A DNA stretch of 64,000 bases, taken from the sequence record NC_134264.1; one strand, written 5' to 3'. The translations under genes and the position numbers were made by a program. Origin of the DNA: Escherichia phage Lindwurm. Shown one piece after another: positions 6,901 to 38,276 of this stretch. Below the pieces are notes generated by a model. It was not told where the DNA came from. It saw only the letters and a list, made by a program, of their open reading frames with translations, and ran no database searches. Every line of letters begins with the position of its first letter. Positions within the stretch are counted from its first letter, which is position 1.

Positions 6901-7675
6901 TATTATTTTTCTCCAATAGTTCTTTAATCGACAGGATTTCTATCCCATTCGTTTCGGCTTTCTTATAAGATGAGGAAGAACGCTTCGATTCATCCTCACA
7001 GATTAGGTATTTGACGTCTTTAGTAACGGATTTCTTAACCGTATATCCTAGACCTTCTAAATAGTTTGTTGCATCCGTTCGATTTGCAAAATCTTGCAAA
7101 GATCCGGTAATACATACCGCGATTCCATTTGGCTGGGCAATTAATTCATCTGTAATGATGACGTCAGCTTTAGTGCCCTTAATACCGGTTGAAAATTTCC
7201 ACGGTAGTTCGATAACATCCTTGCCTTGTGGGGAATTTAGCCAGGCTTTATAATTTTCTCCAGCCTTGCCGTCAGCCTTCACATCGTGGAAGCTAGTGCA
7301 ATTTTGGGATAATTTCTTTGCTGCAACCTCTCCAATTAGAGAGATTCCTAAAGAACCGAGAACTGAACCAAAGTCAATGTCTCCGCGAACTTTAGTATTT
7401 AATTCGCTAATTAGCTTAGCGGCAACCTTGCTACCCACGGCTCTAACCAAATCTTCTTCGGTTAGGTAAAATAGTTCTGAAATCTTCGTCAGCTCCAGCT
7501 TCTCAATAGTTTTTGGGCCAAAGCCCTTTAACTTCATTTTTGTACAGAAGTTCTCAATTAACTTACTTGATTGCGCTGGACAGTTGGACTTATTCCGACA
7601 GAATAATTGTCCGTTGACAAGATCTAGCTTAGAACCACAAGAGGGACATTGTGTTGGAATTTCGATTTTCATCAA
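6893..7675 (-). CDS. NAD-dependent DNA ligase, C-terminal half (Zn finger, HhH, BRCT-like)
   Basis: CPSCGSKLDLVNGQLFCRNKSNC zinc finger at N-terminus; follows ligase adenylation/OB ORF. Confidence 0.7.
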   Translation of the reverse strand: MMKIEIPTQCPSCGSKLDLVNGQLFCRNKSNCPAQSSKLIENFCTKMKLKGFGPKTIEKLELTKISELFYLTEEDLVRAVGSKVAAKLISELNTKVRGDIDFGSVLGSLGISLIGEVAAKKLSQNCTSFHDVKADGKAGENYKAWLNSPQGKDVIELPWKFSTGIKGTKADVIITDELIAQPNGIAVCITGSLQDFANRTDATNYLEGLGYTVKKSVTKDVKYLICEDESKRSSSSYKKAETNGIEILSIKELLEKNNNV

Positions 7676-7702
7676 ATTTCTTCCTTATCAATTTATATAA
7701 AT

Positions 7703-7731
7703 ATTATAGCAAGTATTTAAGCATTTAGCAA
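7703..7731 (-). promoter_or_regulatory. early-type sigma70 promoter (TTGCTA-17-TATAAT) inside the ligase split
   Basis: minus-strand TTGCTA and TATAAT with 17-nt spacer, followed by ATAAATTGATAAGGAAG box. Confidence 0.5.
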
Positions 7732-7874
7732 CTACAATTTTAACTAACTTTGCTTACCCTCGCCATAACTTTCTATCCCTCAACTGAATGATAATAGTAT
7801 ATACCTAAGCGGCGAAAATGTCAATAACCACTTTATAATTCCGATATGGTAGATGGGTAGCAAAGGGTTATGTA

Positions 7875-8846
7875 TTAATCGTATACTCGCTCTACTATGC
7901 ACGGGATTACACCACCAGCACGAATTACTCGAATCTGGCAACCGATCTCTAGATCGAGAGAGTTAATATAATCAACGTTATTAAGGGTCGCTTTAACAAT
8001 TGTAGCATCATCAATAATTACCGGCTCGAAATAACCAACTGGAGTTACTTTACCAGAAGCCCCTACCTGCCACTCAACTTTAGTAAGAGTTGTAATCTCG
8101 CCTTCTTCATCCTCTTTAATAGCGAATGCTCCACGAGGGAATTTATTAGTCCAGCCTTCACGGAAGAATTTGTTGTTGTCATTAATACGAACAACTTTAC
8201 CGTCCGTCGGAATCCATTTAAAGAAGGAACGCACATTAACAACTGTTAAGAAGTCCTCATTCTCTAGCCAAAGCATATCTTTTAAATATGCTTCTGTAAT
8301 ACCTACAGATTCAGCAGAACACTGGATACCGTATGCAACGAAGATTAGACCACCTTCTCCGATACGTTGTACGAAATCATCACTATCTTTGAGGTTAATA
8401 GCACCAGAGGCAAAGTTACGTTTATTTTCTACTTCTTTTGTAATTAGAACTTCACCAGTGATTTGAGTAGGTACTTTTTGGGAAATCTTTTTAGGAATAT
8501 TCAGCAATCTTACGTTGCTTGTGACATCATTCCCTAGAATACCATTACCACGAGTTAGTGCTTGAACAAATTCTCCATTAATATATAACAGAGAAATCGC
8601 ACAACCATCTAACTTATCAGTTTCTACTTGACCTAATGGGTTAAACGGAGGTTTATCCCCACGATTATAATAAACTTTCTGTAAAGAATACATACGATAC
8701 AGATGTGGGATATCTCCTTTAGGCCCAATCTCTTCCTCTATTGGGAATCTTTTAATAAGACGATCATATTCTTCATCAGAGATTAAAGACATTCCCTGGT
8801 AATACGCTTCTTGACAACGTTTAATAAAGTCTTTTACATTAGTCAT
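7875..8846 (-). CDS. NAD-dependent DNA ligase, N-terminal half (adenylation domain plus OB fold)
   Basis: KxDG adenylation motif in KLDGCAISLLY; C-terminus VIRAGGVIPCIVERV resembles OB-fold end of LigA. Confidence 0.75.
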   Translation of the reverse strand: MTNVKDFIKRCQEAYYQGMSLISDEEYDRLIKRFPIEEEIGPKGDIPHLYRMYSLQKVYYNRGDKPPFNPLGQVETDKLDGCAISLLYINGEFVQALTRGNGILGNDVTSNVRLLNIPKKISQKVPTQITGEVLITKEVENKRNFASGAINLKDSDDFVQRIGEGGLIFVAYGIQCSAESVGITEAYLKDMLWLENEDFLTVVNVRSFFKWIPTDGKVVRINDNNKFFREGWTNKFPRGAFAIKEDEEGEITTLTKVEWQVGASGKVTPVGYFEPVIIDDATIVKATLNNVDYINSLDLEIGCQIRVIRAGGVIPCIVERVYD

Positions 8847-32091: not shown

Positions 32092-32409
32092 ATGACTTTT
32101 CATATTTTGATTGATGATGTGCGTAATCTTCATGGAATGGACATTATCATTCGAACCCCAGAAGCCGCTGTAGAGTTTCTGAATAAAACTGATACCACAG
32201 GCCATTTCGTTTATATGGATAATGACTTGGCTGTAGATGGTATGGAAGGTTATCAAATTCTTCGTTTACTCTTAGAATTTGGGCAGAGACCAAAGAAAGT
32301 GGTACTAGTAACCTCGAACCCAGTAGCTAAGCAAAATATGCGTAATGATTTGCTTGACTTAGGGTATAAAGAAAATCCCAATCGTGTTGAATATGATTGG
32401 CAGGAGTAA
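32092..32409 (+). CDS. hypothetical protein
   Basis: 105 aa. Confidence 0.5.
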   Translation: MTFHILIDDVRNLHGMDIIIRTPEAAVEFLNKTDTTGHFVYMDNDLAVDGMEGYQILRLLLEFGQRPKKVVLVTSNPVAKQNMRNDLLDLGYKENPNRVEYDWQE

Positions 32410-32414
32410 AAAGA

Positions 32415-32864
32415 ATGAAGGCAGCTTTGCTTTTAGTAGCTGCCCTTACCTTCAGCTTTAGTAGTCAGGCATCGCACGATGCAAAAGAAATAGATTGCAT
32501 TGCTAAAAATATCTATTTCGAGAGTCGTGGTGAGGGCATAAAGGGAATGACGGCGATTGCACATGTTACTAAAAACCGTGTAAACTCCGGTAAATTCCCA
32601 GATTCCTACTGTAAAGTAGTATATCAGTCTAACCAGTTCTCTTGGGTATCTAAGAGACCAAAAGTTGATAAAACTGATGAGGCTTGGCAAACCGCTAAGA
32701 ATTTAGCTAGAGTGATATACTACGTTGATTTACCACAAGATCCTACATATGGAGCACTATACTTCCATAGTGGTAAAGATAAACCTTACTGGACAAAGAA
32801 GTTTAAGAAAACAACTAAGATTAAGGGACATACGTTTTATAAACCTGTTGTCACTAAAACTTAA
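32415..32864 (+). CDS. secreted SleB/CwlJ-like cell wall hydrolase
   Basis: signal peptide MKAALLLVAALTFSFSSQA; NIYFESRGEG...AHVTKNRV hydrolase_2-like motif; ATG 32415 with GGAG RBS. Confidence 0.65.
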   Translation: MKAALLLVAALTFSFSSQASHDAKEIDCIAKNIYFESRGEGIKGMTAIAHVTKNRVNSGKFPDSYCKVVYQSNQFSWVSKRPKVDKTDEAWQTAKNLARVIYYVDLPQDPTYGALYFHSGKDKPYWTKKFKKTTKIKGHTFYKPVVTKT

Positions 32865-33719: not shown

Positions 33720-34490
33720 GCCGATTACGCTGAGTGCAGAATCCCAACCGGAGCGCATTGAATAGAGTCGGTGGGTTAGTTGTAAAACTAGTACACAGGG
33801 GGCGGCAATCCCGGTTAGTGGCTAGAACGTGTAAAATGAGGCGTCTGAAACCTCTCCCCTAAACTCTTCTCTAATTTATAAATAGTGGGGTGTGGAAATC
33901 ACTTATGTAGTAACACTGCCGTACTAGTATAATTGGTATTATCAAGCCGTAACTGGTGGAAGATGTAGGTTCGAATCCTACGGTCGGTAAGAACTGGATA
34001 ACTGGTGCTTTTAATGTAAAAGCTTCCGAGGTTAGTTGCGCACTGCCTAAACCACGCGGTAGTTGGTTCCAGACTAACCAACCAGTCTGCTGAATAGTTT
34101 TATTACGATTTAACTATGTCCAGGCTAAAGAAGAACTTTAGAAGGTATTCTAGGATAGTGAAGTTCTTTCTCCATATCGGAGTAGTTTTTCAAGCTATCC
34201 CCAAAGTGGGAAATGCTGACATGAGAGATGTCACTAATGGTGCACAATAGCACAGGTAATTCGCGATAACTCCTGTTGAGTAGCAGCAAAAGGCGGGAAG
34301 TCATGACCCCAAGCCTAACCGAGTCCTCAATATACCGCAGGACATAACCACTAAGTCACCCTGACTTAAACTGGAAAATAATAGACGTTACCGTATTTTG
34401 TCTTGAAATACTTAATGAGTGAGACTTATGACTCTCCCGGTATCGTCTGTATTTTTAAGAGTTTTTACAAGAGTTCTTAAAAATACTTAA
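33720..34490 (+). ncRNA. structured non-coding leader/RNA region of unknown function
   Basis: about 770 nt without credible ORF, downstream of a promoter; orphan T-arm GTAGG-TTCGAAT-CCTAC at 33965-33981; mutually exclusive hairpins at 34050-34090. Confidence 0.35.
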
Positions 34491-34600: not shown

Positions 34601-35548
34601 ATGTTTAATACTAAAAATATGAAAGAACTGACTTCTGAGCAGAAAGTAATTCGTACTATTAAACGTTGGGGTATTGGTGCTGTAGTTGGTTTAGCAGGCT
34701 TGATTCTAGCTTTTAATTCGTATACCATTGTTTCTGATGGTACGGTTAAAACCCAGACTTTCCTGGGTAAAGTAGACCCTAATCCAGTATTACCTGGTTT
34801 CCATCTTGTAAACCCGTTTGCATCTTTCGATACTTTTAGTACAAAAGATATTGCTGTAAAATTAGATAAACTTCAGGTTCCTAGTCAGGATAAGTTTAAA
34901 TCCACTGTTGACCTGACTGTTATGTTGCAGTTTGATGGTTCTAAGGCACCGATTAACCGTATTAACGCAGGTACTCAGGATCAGGCACTAGACAAGTATG
35001 TAACTGAAAAATTACTGTCTACTATTCGTGAGTTTGGTAAGTCTGTACCTAAAGCACAAGATTTGTTTGATGCTAAAATTCAGGCTCAATTGCAAACTGC
35101 AATTCAACAAGAAGTTGAAGAGTATGCACGCCCATATGGTTATACAGTTAAGCAGGTATTCCTTCAGGATATTACTTTGCCACCGGTAATCATGGAACAG
35201 GTACAGAATACCAAAGTTCGTGAAGAGCAAGTTAATGCTGCGAAAGCTGAACTGGCTCGTGTTGAACAAGAAGCACAGCAGAAGGTTAAACAAGCAGAAG
35301 CAGATCGTGAAGCTCGCAACAACCAAGCTATTGCTAATGAACGTGACGCAGATGCTAAACTGTACGCAGCTAAGAAAGAAGCTGAAGCTAACGCCGCATT
35401 GCAACGTACCATTACTCCTGAGATGATTCGTTGGAAACAACTGGAAGTTGAGATGATTCGTGCTCAGAAATATCAAGGTGGTGTACCTCAGACTGTGGTA
35501 GGTACTGGCTACGATGGTCAAATGATCATGGATATGCGTAACAAATAA
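34601..35548 (+). CDS. SPFH/band-7 (prohibitin-like) membrane protein
   Basis: N-terminal TM GIGAVVGLAGLILAF; SPFH-like core; Ala/Gln/Glu-rich coiled-coil C-terminus. Confidence 0.6.
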   Translation: MFNTKNMKELTSEQKVIRTIKRWGIGAVVGLAGLILAFNSYTIVSDGTVKTQTFLGKVDPNPVLPGFHLVNPFASFDTFSTKDIAVKLDKLQVPSQDKFKSTVDLTVMLQFDGSKAPINRINAGTQDQALDKYVTEKLLSTIREFGKSVPKAQDLFDAKIQAQLQTAIQQEVEEYARPYGYTVKQVFLQDITLPPVIMEQVQNTKVREEQVNAAKAELARVEQEAQQKVKQAEADREARNNQAIANERDADAKLYAAKKEAEANAALQRTITPEMIRWKQLEVEMIRAQKYQGGVPQTVVGTGYDGQMIMDMRNK

Positions 35549-35571
35549 TAGTTACACGTAATCTTCGAACC

Positions 35572-35610
35572 AAGCCCGCGTTTCCTCCGAGAGCGCAGGC
35601 TTTTCTGTAT
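35572..35610 (+). terminator. hairpin terminator
   Basis: AAGCCCGCG...GCGCAGGCTT stem followed by TTTTCTGTATTT. Confidence 0.5.
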
Positions 35611-35620
35611 TTAAGGCAAA

Positions 35621-35660
35621 ATAAAAAGCCCCTAAGTCTTTCGACTAGGGGCTTTATTGT
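35621..35660. terminator. bidirectional terminator between convergent genes
   Basis: AGCCCCTA...TAGGGGCT stem flanked by A-run upstream and T-run downstream. Confidence 0.6.
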
Positions 35661-35872
35661 TTGGTTCCTTAGAACCATATACTCTTGTTACAGCAACCAC
35701 CCATACGGGAGGCCAATCTTGACTGAAAATCTACTCTAGGGGGCAGGATAAGAGTAGGCTTAAAGGCAAACGGATTGAACGCCGGTATTTGCGTAAACAT
35801 TGCTGGAGAGCAACAACGTGCTACAGGCATTGGGCAGCACGAAACAGGTTTTCTGCAACACATAATTTCTCC

Positions 35873-36289
35873 TTAGGAGTTATTACCACCATTTTGAGCT
35901 TTTGCAATTTGGCTTTGGCAGAAGCTATTAAACTTACCCATAAGTGATACAAGCTGTTTCCCATCCTCTGTCTTTGCGAAGTCTTCGAAAAGGGCTAGTA
36001 CTGCCTGTCCTTCCGCGGAAACCTGTGGTTGTTGGGTTTGTTGCTGAACTTGCTGCTGAGGCACCTGTTGCTGCATTTGTTGGGGCATTTGCGACTGCCC
36101 GCTCATTTGCTGCATCATTTGCATAGGACTCACACTTCCAGGGTTTTGCTGGAGTTGTTGCTGCATCTGTTGCGCTTCTGCTAAACGCTGTTGCAATTGT
36201 TGTAAGTAGGGGTTATCCAGACCCGGAATGGGCTGCTGGGAGCCCATACTTTGATTAAGTCCGTTATTTACAAAACCATATTTACTCAT
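35873..36289 (-). CDS. Gln-rich hypothetical protein
   Basis: 138 aa; low-complexity Q/P-rich core. Confidence 0.5.
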   Translation of the reverse strand: MSKYGFVNNGLNQSMGSQQPIPGLDNPYLQQLQQRLAEAQQMQQQLQQNPGSVSPMQMMQQMSGQSQMPQQMQQQVPQQQVQQQTQQPQVSAEGQAVLALFEDFAKTEDGKQLVSLMGKFNSFCQSQIAKAQNGGNNS

Positions 36290-36310
36290 AATGGGCTCCT
36301 CCCCTTAATA

Positions 36311-37297
36311 TTAAGCCGGCAGTTTAGCCTGCAGACCAGCCAGAGTCTGAGTGATAGTACCAAGACTTAAAGCGATTTGATTAATTACCTGACCGTTAGC
36401 ACCGCTACCCGCAGCGATTGCTTCACGTAGGCGACACGCATCTAACTCATCCTGGATACGCGCAGTAGTTACACCGGCGATCGCAGTCTGAAGTTCACAG
36501 CAACATTCAGCAATCTGACGTTCCAGAGAGTTCTGGTTAGCACACATCTGAGCCTGAACAGCGGCAAACTGGTTATTAGTTTGTAAAGTCTGCTGGAAAG
36601 CGATCTGTGCAGAATCAAACTTATCTTGTGCACGAGCTATCTGATTAGCTGCGAAAGATTGATCAATCTGGCGAGAAAGATCGAACTGGCCCTGAATAAC
36701 GTTGCGAGTTTCCTGGCAGATCTGATTAGACAGATTAGCACCTGTACCATAGATCGTAGTTAGTACAGACTGAGTATCACGGCTCTGGTTTTGGGATGTC
36801 TGGCTAAAACCATTGTTAACTGCGCTTAAAACAGCTCCAGTGCCCTGGTTAGCTTCTGTACGAGTAGTGTTAATAGCTGCTAGAATACTAGCGGTATCTT
36901 GGTTCTGAAGTACTGCATCAACTGCGGTACCTTCACCAACTACACCACGCCCACCGAATCCACCGAAACCACCGAATCCGCCTGTTAATAGAGCACCGAT
37001 TAGGATAGCTCCGAATAGTCCCATACCTTCACCACCGAAAGCACCTGCGTTTGCTGGGTAACCACCCAGTAGGCCAGGAAAGCCACTAGTGAATACGTTT
37101 ACTGGTTCTTGCATTTTATGTTTTCCATATTTATGACAATGTTCATCATCGTCATCTTCTTCATCGTCGTGTTCGCGATGTTTCTCTTCGTAGGCTCTGA
37201 CCTTCTCCCACTTTTTCTTATCTGATTCCTCGTGACGGTGCAGTTCTGCTGCAACGCTAGCGACGGTCTCAGGACTCTTAGCTACTTCTTCTGTCAT
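36311..37297 (-). CDS. glycine-zipper membrane-like protein with acidic N-terminus and Q/N/A-rich C-terminus
   Basis: AGGAGG RBS 9 nt before ATG at 37297; GGFGGFGGFGG repeats; CCC cluster. Confidence 0.5.
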   Translation of the reverse strand: MTEEVAKSPETVASVAAELHRHEESDKKKWEKVRAYEEKHREHDDEEDDDDEHCHKYGKHKMQEPVNVFTSGFPGLLGGYPANAGAFGGEGMGLFGAILIGALLTGGFGGFGGFGGRGVVGEGTAVDAVLQNQDTASILAAINTTRTEANQGTGAVLSAVNNGFSQTSQNQSRDTQSVLTTIYGTGANLSNQICQETRNVIQGQFDLSRQIDQSFAANQIARAQDKFDSAQIAFQQTLQTNNQFAAVQAQMCANQNSLERQIAECCCELQTAIAGVTTARIQDELDACRLREAIAAGSGANGQVINQIALSLGTITQTLAGLQAKLPA

Positions 37298-37503
37298 TTT
37301 TTGACACCTCCTAGTATATAGAAAATGTGTGTCTCTTTGATCACTCATCCATAACATATACTTTACACTACCCCAGCGAAAATGTCAAGGGGTCTTTAAA
37401 AATTGCCCCCGGATTTTTAGTGGGGTCACAAATTTTGGTCCTCACTACTTATCTGCTACCCTTAAATGCCCTATGATTTTCCTCTAAAAAGTTAAAAAAT
37501 TTA

Positions 37504-37532
37504 ATTGCTTGAATGCTATATTCTCTGTATAA
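37504..37532 (+). promoter_or_regulatory. early-type promoter
   Basis: TTGCTT-17-TATAAT then CTATAAATTTGAGAGAGG. Confidence 0.6.
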
Positions 37533-37562
37533 TATATCTATAAATTTGAGAGAGGAACCAAA

Positions 37563-38082
37563 TATGAATGTTGATGAGCTAACACAGCACCTCTTATCTA
37601 GAGGATTTGATACAGATAAATATCATTGCTGGTTAAGTACGGAAGGATGGCTAACAGTCCCGTTGTATGACTTCTCTGGGATGTTGAGGGGCTATCAAAC
37701 TTATAATCCTTCTGCTCCAAAAGGTCATGGTAAGTGCCCCTTTGAAGCTAAATACTTTACTTATTCTACTACCCAGTGTGTATGGGGACTAGAAACTCTC
37801 AATGGAGATGAAAAAGTAGTATTGATTGCTGAATCTGTATTTAAGGCAGTTGCGTTACATAACGCTGGTTATCCAGCCCTAGCAATGTTGGGTTCTTCTC
37901 CAGGAAAAGCGTTATTAAAGCAACTGAAATTACTACCTTTTAAATTGATAGCTGTCGGGGACAATGATCCTGCGGGTGAAAAATTTGCTAGAAAATTAAA
38001 CGGCTTTGTTTCTCCTGTAGATGTAGATGAGATGTCTACCGAAAACTTGAAAAATTTTCTTGCTATGAAGCTAAATTTCTAA
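37563..38082 (+). CDS. Toprim-domain protein
   Basis: VVLIAESVFKA ... KLIAVGDNDPAGEKFARKL (conserved Glu plus DxD); ATG 37563. Confidence 0.55.
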
Positions 38083-38198: not shown

Positions 38199-38276
38199 GG
38201 TTCTCAAGCTCATATGGTATGAGCACCCAGCTCATAACTGGAAGGTACGTAGGTTCGAATCCTCGGGGAGCCACCA
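38199..38276 (+). tRNA. tRNA with CAU anticodon (Met/fMet/Ile2)
   Basis: acceptor GGTTCTC/GGGAGCC with G-U pairs, D-arm GCTC-ATATGGTAT-GAGC, anticodon loop CTCATAA; T-stem poorly paired. Confidence 0.55.

Follow-up and report, generated by a model that had tools for sequence, protein, structure and literature searches.

Bacteriophage T5 is a classical model phage, and its annotated records (AY734508 and NC_005859) hold a strongly signalled operon to which, nevertheless, no function has been assigned since annotation: promoter P12, T5p075/T5.077 (321 amino acids (aa)), T5p076/T5.078 (138 aa) and T5p077/T5.079 (64 aa), followed by a bidirectional terminator, a ‘major DNA single-chain interruption’ just past it and a convergent band-7 (SPFH) gene. 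We analyzed the same layout in a window of 64,000 nt from Escherichia phage Lindwurm (NC_134264.1), a T5-like phage (Tequintavirus), in which three minus-strand genes, here termed A, B and C, lie in the tRNA and accessory part of the early region. Gene order, promoter, terminator and the convergent SPFH gene are shared with T5, protein A is ~81% identical to its T5 counterpart and nothing of substance differs; the T5 genes are listed as hypothetical proteins only. The open reading frames (ORFs), promoter and terminator were already known from the T5 annotation. Not described in the annotations and papers checked are three further points: the genes form a cassette exchanged among unrelated phages, gene C is real yet mostly unannotated, and A belongs to a very large cysteine-triplet family that reaches contigs bearing a giant-virus metagenome-assembled genome label (GVMAG).

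Superinfection-exclusion membrane proteins encoded by morons, such as HK97 gp15, T4 Imm and Sp and P22 SieA, resemble this cassette in forming an autonomous promoter–gene–terminator unit that is dispensable, predicted to be membrane anchored and located at module boundaries in different phages. The cassette differs in having three genes instead of one and in lacking sequence similarity to them. Lambda Rz/Rz1-type spanins likewise combine a membrane-anchored protein, whose long helical domain contains cysteines, with a small Pro/Cys-rich partner encoded by the following gene, sometimes beside lysis genes. Compared with two-component spanins, however, the partner in the cassette has no lipoprotein signal, the predicted topology is opposite and there is no sequence similarity; moreover, the A family occurs in phages of Gram-positive hosts, and T5-like phages have been reported to possess separate spanins.

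A self-contained three-gene operon

The 2.1 kb around the module matched 341 phage records, the best matches being Salmonella phages S130/S131 and Th1 (98% identity), all T5-like Demerecviridae. The module is missing in about a third of the T5-like records that share its flanks (341 match, 216 cover ≥80%). Its sigma-70-type promoter (37360–37388, minus strand) corresponds to P12 of T5 and is invariant in six T5-like phages. A consensus scan placed TTGACA at 37388–37383 and TAAAGT at 37365–37360, separated by a 17-bp spacer and agreeing with the consensus at 10 of 12 positions; within 3.8 kb, only two promoter-like sigma-70 sites were found, the P12 equivalent among them. A preliminary description of this DNA had put TTGACA near 37395 and had seen it as flanked by GGGGTC direct repeats. 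The element is indeed present on the minus strand, at 37388 instead, and two GGGGTC copies are real (plus strand 37389–37394 and 37422–37427), but both lie upstream of the −35 element. On the minus strand, each copy reads GACCCC and pairs with a GGGG(G/T) run 11–14 nt downstream, forming the inverted repeats GACCCC-N11-GGGGG and GACCCC-N14-GGGGT around and upstream of −35 (37371–37427). Although the window contains no excess of the hexamer (7 observed, 10.4 expected), neither copy varies among six T5-like phages, and the two inverted repeats represent a possible operator or structural element.

From upstream of −35 to the start codon (37298–37430), ~130 nt are almost invariant in six phages across Tequintavirus and Epseptimavirus, the A genes of which differ at half or more of their synonymous sites. 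The 5′ leader (37298–37355, minus strand), nearly invariant among T5-like phages, contains the Shine–Dalgarno sequence AGGAGG (37312–37307) and gave no significant RNA fold (z = −0.95). Gene A (36311–37297; 328 aa; homologue of T5.077/T5p075; PHROG 8119) agrees in ORF table and sequence with the preliminary description, including its strong ribosome-binding site (RBS), with AGGAGG located 9 bases 5′ of the ATG. It is followed by gene B (35873–36289; 138 aa; homologue of T5.078/T5p076; PHROG 7894). The module had been taken to consist of these two genes; a third, gene C (35669–35863; 64 aa; homologue of T5.079/T5p077), sits between B and the terminator. C starts 10 bases after B, has its own RBS, AAGGAG, and is unannotated in most GenBank records that contain it.

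The unit closes with a bidirectional rho-independent terminator (35618–35655; ‘ter1’ in T5), built as AAAGCCCCTAGTC-GAAA-GACTTAGGGGCTTT followed by a T run. Its hairpin (~35655–35618) has an RNA folding energy of −24.3 kcal/mol (z = −5.2), a stability equalled by none of 200 shuffled sequences. This fold and the T5 annotation of an ‘efficient bidirectional rho-independent transcription terminator’ confirm the terminator proposed earlier. Support likewise extends to the view that the module is transcribed autonomously, from a promoter of its own to a terminator of its own. Tequintavirus and Epseptimavirus differ in the sequence of the stem while keeping the hairpin. Rfam contained no RNA family matching within the cassette. 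The locus is, in sum, a self-contained three-gene operon comprising P12, A, B, C and the bidirectional terminator.

Conservation and exchange of the cassette

All three ORFs were intact, and their order constant, in 25 of 25 T5-like loci. Pairwise ratios of nonsynonymous to synonymous divergence (dN/dS) of 0.12–0.21 for A and 0.07–0.28 for B show that both are clearly under purifying selection. For C (0.08–0.36), the evidence is weaker: its synonymous divergence is 3–5-fold lower than that of A and B (dS 0.08–0.23 versus 0.5–1.0), hence small counts. The low dS hints at an extra constraint at the nucleotide level or a recent sweep. Variable sites in C number 5, 7 and 13 at codon positions 1, 2 and 3, favoring the third; the equivalent values for A looked inflated, probably by one badly extracted sequence, and were not relied on. 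Conservation of the ORFs in related phages, a check proposed in the preliminary description, was evident from tBLASTN searches, which recovered them in 220–221 phage records (A, 221; conserved B C-terminus, 221; C, 220).

The strongest evidence that C is a real gene comes from unrelated phages with the A–B–C trio. In the Pseudomonas siphophage RSP (63 kb), the cassette lies beside the large terminase gene and encodes an A protein of 321 aa, a B protein of 143 aa ending in ...LFNEFAETEDGKQLVAFIGKFNGFCQSKIQKAQN and a C protein of 60 aa (MCCNQPVPQCCGP...RCCKKFDCC); Pseudomonas phage KPP23, also a siphophage, carries it as well. On a lambdoid-type contig (L144), it occupies the opposite strand between the Q antiterminator gene and the holin–lysozyme–Rz genes, with a C protein of 91 aa containing RCCPMPVPRCCG...GGCCGLI. 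A metagenomic contig (L146) encodes A, B and C of 307, 132 and 71 aa, and a distant T5-like contig has the trio in the same order. On N4-like contigs with a giant virion RNA polymerase, A and B are clear, but C is reduced to a remnant resembling it. Among T5-like phages, the neighbor upstream of the cassette changes from a primase-like gene in Tequintavirus to NadR-like and PnuC-like genes in Epseptimavirus, with the cassette unchanged. Because the same A–B–C order recurs in at least four unrelated backbones, in addition to A, B and the C remnant of N4-like phages, the trio is, judging from gene content and order, a horizontally mobile cassette among unrelated tailed phages. Since unrelated phages exchange the unit as a block, joint action of its three products is almost certain.

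Three lines of evidence indicate that phages can grow lytically in the laboratory without the cassette. According to the annotation of the T5 record, the T5 st0 deletion covers the whole cassette region; a laboratory deletion in phage Bas33 (69,093–78,836) takes out the locus (PMC13250531); and in a 2025 CRISPRi-ART study of T5 (PMC11879866, supplementary files 8 and 16), T5.077, T5.078 and T5.079 are each scored ‘Not Fit’ and entered under ‘unknown function’. A literature search for T5p075–077/T5.077–079 retrieved nothing in main texts, the only mention being in these CRISPRi-ART supplements.

The three proteins and a cysteine-triplet family

Composition analysis of protein A recovered every feature that the preliminary description had listed. 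The first 90 residues are acidic and His-rich (22 Asp/Glu, 12 Lys/Arg and 7 His); a Gly-rich hydrophobic stretch, GLFGAILIGALLTGGFGGFGGFGG, lies within the uncharged residues 91–116 (best 19-residue Kyte–Doolittle hydropathy, 1.72); and the Q/N/A-rich C-terminal half forms long helices and includes a CCC triplet at residues 265–267, with seven cysteines in the protein overall. The label ‘glycine zipper’ for the hydrophobic stretch is not supported: A had no match to the Pfam glycine-zipper clan at E ≤ 1, and its core glycines are mostly spaced by five residues and not as GxxxG. A matches phrog_8119 over residues 1–328 (E = 5.9 × 10−204) and, weakly, PHROGs 16490 and 9288. The 328-aa protein had no match to holin families in Pfam or PHROGs, and sequence and profile searches gave no significant match in the Protein Data Bank (PDB). 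The AlphaFold model of A consists of long helices at low confidence (predicted local distance difference test (pLDDT) 45.8), too poor for a fold search; such a helix-only model is typical of proteins that need partners or oligomerization.

The orientation of A in a membrane can be predicted from the charges flanking the hydrophobic segment. Among 104 distinct family members with this segment, a partly redundant sample containing many closely related sequences, Lys/Arg residues are in excess on the C-terminal side in 75, on the N-terminal side in 3 and equal in 26, and the N-terminal tails are net negative. By the positive-inside rule, A is therefore predicted to adopt an N-out/C-in topology, placing the CCC domain in the cytoplasm alongside B and C. 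This predicted topology also fits the relatives that lack a membrane segment.

Protein B matches phrog_7894 over its full length (residues 1–138, E = 1.5 × 10−80) and has no signal peptide. It had been described as a poly-Q protein encoded at 35873–36289; coordinates and glutamine content (27.5%) agree, but the tract appears to be only a variable linker. The AlphaFold model shows a helix (residues 27–48), a disordered Q/M-rich linker and a confident helical hairpin (residues 92–133, pLDDT 82–91). Since the Q/M/P-rich linker varies in length and its Q/M tract is absent in distant homologues, poly-Q is, on this comparison, a variable connection between conserved helical ends and not the functional core of B. 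This also bears on the earlier characterization of the module as membrane-active or aggregation-prone: membrane association of A is plausible, whereas the argument for poly-Q aggregation is weakened. A role of the Met/Gln tract as a chaperone-like or copper-binding element was considered and is weakened by its absence from distant B homologues. Foldseek searches with the B model found no match in the PDB and, in BFVD, only the KPP23 homologue. The product name ‘cAMP-dependent protein kinase catalytic subunit’, given to several B homologues, among them those in the Sepoy, ESCO30, HMD-P5 and JLBYU40 GenBank records, almost certainly goes back to a spurious match through low-complexity poly-Gln sequence, spread by annotation pipelines. 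Protein C (MCCRKPVSCCPMPVARCCSP...GGCCNKSIWF) is Pro- and Cys-rich and carries a net charge of +7; its eight cysteines all occur in pairs, as four CC doublets. Its N-terminus, MCCRKPVSCC, contains neither a signal peptide nor a lipobox, and its 19-residue hydropathy maximum is 0.85.

A word-indexed search with A returned T5-like relatives only. A profile built from these relatives and compared with 1.84 billion representatives gave 106 matches at a whole-library E ≤ 1 × 10−3 and revealed two recurring modules. The first is the Gly-rich hydrophobic segment, typically GGLLIGALLGGRGGFGFGG; the second is a helical domain with an invariant cysteine triplet and the motif F.A.QL.A.KN...L.RQ[LIM]AECCCE[LIV]KE.I...R[LV]RD.L. 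Some family proteins contain just one of the two. In A, residues 261–268 read QIAECCCE, agreeing with the family pattern Q-[LIM]-[AS]-[EDNQ]-CCC-[EDS], the triplet of which is invariant in three family alignments, and residues 91–116 provide the uncharged Gly-rich hydrophobic segment N-terminal to the helical domain, a feature absent in some members. Homology placed A, B and C in no characterized family, the outcome on which the preliminary description had made its reading depend: searches with the three proteins and their distant relatives against Pfam, NCBIfam, PHROGs and PADLOC yielded only PHROGs of unknown function, and the family proteins had no Pfam, NCBIfam or PDB sequence match.

Cultured phages with family members include Edwardsiella phage eiAU, Clostridium perfringens phage XP41-N3 and phages of Aeromonas, Klebsiella, Salmonella and Enterobacter; given the member in a C. 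perfringens phage, the family is not specific to Gram-negative envelopes. Scanning IMG/VR with the phage-type subfamily identified at least 494 loci, mostly from human-gut viromes. With the CCC domain, the same database yielded the T5-like loci and 29 others, many on contigs labelled GVMAG or on contigs of 199–473 kb, while a word-indexed search with the CCC-domain profile gave only seven short matches. The proteins on these contigs measure 165–600 aa; most are without the hydrophobic segment, and their CCC motif lies close to the C-terminal end. Giant-virus status is a label for these contigs, and the hallmark check was limited to a family-B DNA polymerase, which one of the GVMAG or large contigs encodes; one 40-kb contig is a P22-like podophage. 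On a Logan contig (SRR22388068, 5563–6348; L011), translation with the standard code does not give the family member as called, and table 11 breaks the ORF, which suggests a phage with a reassigned stop codon.

Members of the family differ in their C-termini. A Cys-rich tail is present in none of 28 A-type proteins, which have a separate C gene, versus 52 of 72 other members (for example, GCGCNTGCNC). As A-type proteins lack such a tail and most other members have one, C may be the detached Cys-rich tail of the A family, although the sample is redundant and the pattern only suggestive. In eiAU, the family member is followed by a gene (7541–7906) for a His-rich protein (HHHYYHP...HPKHHDSHS), which resembles the His-rich N-terminal tail that T5-like phages have fused to A; it may be another case of domain fission or fusion.

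Gut phages (L063–L142) carry the family member as the third gene of a tight five-gene cassette corresponding to PHROGs 21718, 22984, 16490, 20016/36614 and 28802, all of unknown function. This cassette is often preceded by a small helix-turn-helix or sigma-like gene, was very abundant in one gut virome dataset and has a counterpart of the same pattern in Clostridium phage XP41-N3 (6048–7852; L062). Two partner proteins are small and Q/P-rich and Met/Gln-rich, respectively, and one sometimes begins with a Cys cluster. The cassette lies after tail and holin genes, between a MuF-like gene and the scaffold gene, beside an integrase gene or in the early region, a varying position as expected for a mobile accessory unit. 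Both it and A–B–C have a central protein with a Gly-rich segment and a CCC domain, small Q/M-rich neighbors and Cys-rich sequences; they differ in that the gut cassette has five genes, the partners of which show no detectable homology to B or C. Homology of B or C to these partners was rejected because hhalign scores did not exceed those of reversed-sequence controls, leaving a compositional resemblance or analogy.

Possible roles of the cassette

The best explanation of these findings as a whole package, which we advance tentatively and with somewhat less than even confidence, is an A–B–C complex anchored in the inner membrane with a role in phage–host or phage–phage conflict; within it, cassette and complex stand on much firmer ground than the proposed function. 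A would be anchored in the inner membrane through its Gly-rich segment, with the acidic His-rich tail facing the periplasm and the CCC helical domain facing the cytoplasm. The helical domain would oligomerize, making A both anchor and oligomeric scaffold for partners that lack signals of their own: B, with its helix, flexible linker and helical hairpin, could act as an adaptor, and the small, basic, Pro/Cys-rich C could be held by metal or thiol bridging of its Cys doublets to the Cys triplet of A. In the most speculative step, the complex would alter the cytoplasmic face of the infected cell’s envelope for a nonessential conflict purpose, with exclusion of superinfecting phages or the countering of host defense as candidates. 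Superinfection exclusion, also named in the preliminary description, may be a role of the cassette.

The divergent neighbor (37513–38082, plus strand) is a homologue of T5.076, and its product is Toprim/primase-like. In the CRISPRi-ART re-annotation, T5.076 has the entry ‘anti-defense, subverts retron-mediated defense’ and the score ‘Semi-Fit’ (PMC11879866). As T5.076, the T5 counterpart of this adjoining gene, is listed as anti-retron, the cassette is located in an accessory, counter-defense neighborhood.

Several observations weigh against the conflict complex. No homology points to a function, PADLOC gave no match for A, B, C or the SPFH neighbor, and B and C have no homology to the gut-cassette partners. 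The A–B–C complex is deduced from gene linkage alone, and the AlphaFold model of A has low confidence (pLDDT 45.8). Insertion of A into the membrane is a prediction, and its hydrophobic core is short (19-residue maximum of 1.72); an N-terminal tail of 90 residues with 12 Lys/Arg would be an unusual one to translocate to the N-out side; and many sequences in the sample behind the charge bias are closely related. Finally, the patterns used detected no A-type relatives in 185,579 species-representative genomes, and a prophage-borne exclusion role is therefore unsupported for the A-type cassette.

Among the alternatives, a lysis accessory survives best, although we regard it as unlikely. A would then be a late membrane-fusing or membrane-disrupting protein, with a fusion-peptide-like Gly-rich segment and a long coiled coil, that aids envelope breakdown or tunes lysis timing. 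The combination of GLFGAI... with a subsequent long helix is reminiscent of the influenza HA2 N-terminus, and HA2 was the top match when the A profile was searched against the PDB. At E = 0.084, this match is not significant and provides no evidence of homology; in addition, whereas class I fusion subunits such as HA2 share the Gly-rich hydrophobic peptide and subsequent helix, the segment of A is internal and its helical domain is predicted to be cytoplasmic, a topology that also speaks against action in lysis. Some family members do lie beside lysis genes (L010 after a holin-like two-transmembrane ORF, L066 between holin and lysin genes and L144 by holin–lysozyme–Rz genes), and the cassette itself is located ~2.8 kb from an ORF (32397–32864) that is the counterpart of a gene annotated as endolysin in phage S131. 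Adjacency is, however, weak evidence, as accessory genes are commonly inserted at module boundaries in the vicinity of lysis genes. T5-like phages have been reported to encode their own holin, endolysin and spanin pair (PMC4342426, PMC6658699), C has no signal peptide or lipobox, and knock-down carried no fitness cost. The family also occurs in a phage of the Gram-positive C. perfringens and, without the hydrophobic segment, on GVMAG-labelled contigs. Identity as a spanin specifically was rejected: C lacks a signal or lipobox, the charge bias predicts C-in over C-out in 75 versus 3 members where N-in/C-out would be needed, other spanins are reported and the knock-down was ‘Not Fit’.

Metal handling is an improbable second alternative, in which a soft metal (Cu, Zn or Ni) in the infected cell would be bound or sequestered by the acidic His-rich tail and CCC triplet of A and the four Cys doublets of C, as well as by the Cys-rich tails in which relatives end. 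A homologues contain His runs such as HHYHHHHHEH, eiAU has its separate His-rich protein beside the family member, the CCC triplet is invariant, C has CC doublets and many relatives end in tails such as GCGCNTGCNC. This is an argument from composition alone, however; distant homologues have variable His-rich and Q/M-rich tracts or lack them, and Pfam, NCBIfam and the PDB contained no metallothionein, copper-storage or metallochaperone match.

Besides superinfection exclusion, the preliminary description had suggested a toxin or host take-over factor; early in infection, expression of such a factor would damage or reprogram the membrane of the host. High expression is implied by the consensus promoter and strong RBSs, and A has a hydrophobic Gly-rich segment, but nothing found here points to toxicity or take-over, and little probability can be given to this proposal when knock-down of each gene is ‘Not Fit’ and natural deletions remove the dispensable locus. 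The proteins also lack similarity to any toxin or holin family, and the same cassette occurs in phages of very different lifestyles. A virion or assembly component, whether an internal, ejected protein or an assembly scaffold, is very improbable: some gut cassettes lie between a MuF-like head gene and scaffold/capsid genes (L069) or family members directly after tail genes (eiAU and L010), and relatives on GVMAG-labelled contigs lack the membrane segment, but T5 st0, the standard infectious laboratory strain, lacks the locus, the position of the cassette differs between phages and in T5 lies outside the late region, and knock-down had no fitness cost.

Under the conflict-complex explanation, the cassette would add a new protein solution to the accessory or ‘moron’ cassettes of phages, as a well-defined and widespread unit; if exclusion or counter-defense is its true purpose, the solution addresses a known problem; otherwise, the cassette may represent a membrane-associated viral structure of a new kind. 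More broadly, and with distinct doubt, the Cys-triplet domain could define a hitherto unrecognized pan-viral family, present in many lineages of tailed phages of Gram-negative and Gram-positive hosts and on GVMAG-labelled contigs, that in phages builds a new kind of membrane-associated assembly with small partners of odd composition; the function of this assembly, for example as an exclusion or anti-defense scaffold or a thiol- or metal-cross-linked lattice, would have no counterpart described so far. As T5 and Escherichia coli are both genetically tractable, T5 is the natural choice for finding out what the family as a whole does.

Beyond the terminator, the plus-strand gene at 34601–35548 encodes an SPFH/band-7 protein (Pfam Band_7, E = 2 × 10−17) that RefSeq records label ‘lipoprotein’. 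Across T5-like phages, this gene invariably converges on the cassette, and one terminator serves both. Next to the cassettes of Pseudomonas, lambdoid-type and N4-like phages, however, the gene is missing and therefore probably does not belong to the unit. A second GC-rich hairpin (35570–35600, plus strand) just past the cassette terminator contains GAGA|GCGCA, with a predicted nick between 35592 and 35593. This sequence aligns with the ‘major DNA single-chain interruption’ annotated in T5 (consensus Pu-pGCGC), and the same genomic nick is probably present next to the operon in the Lindwurm phage. The window contains 21 tRNA genes, all on the plus strand. Rfam additionally reported plus-strand tRNA matches, not listed by ARAGORN, at 33918–33989 (29.9 bits) and 38199–38273 (38.2 bits). 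The latter aligns with the tRNA gene directly 3′ of tRNA-Ser in relatives (tRNA-Met in S131 and tRNA-Ile(CAU) in T5), and the former falls within a stretch annotated in T5 as the stable ‘RNAX’.

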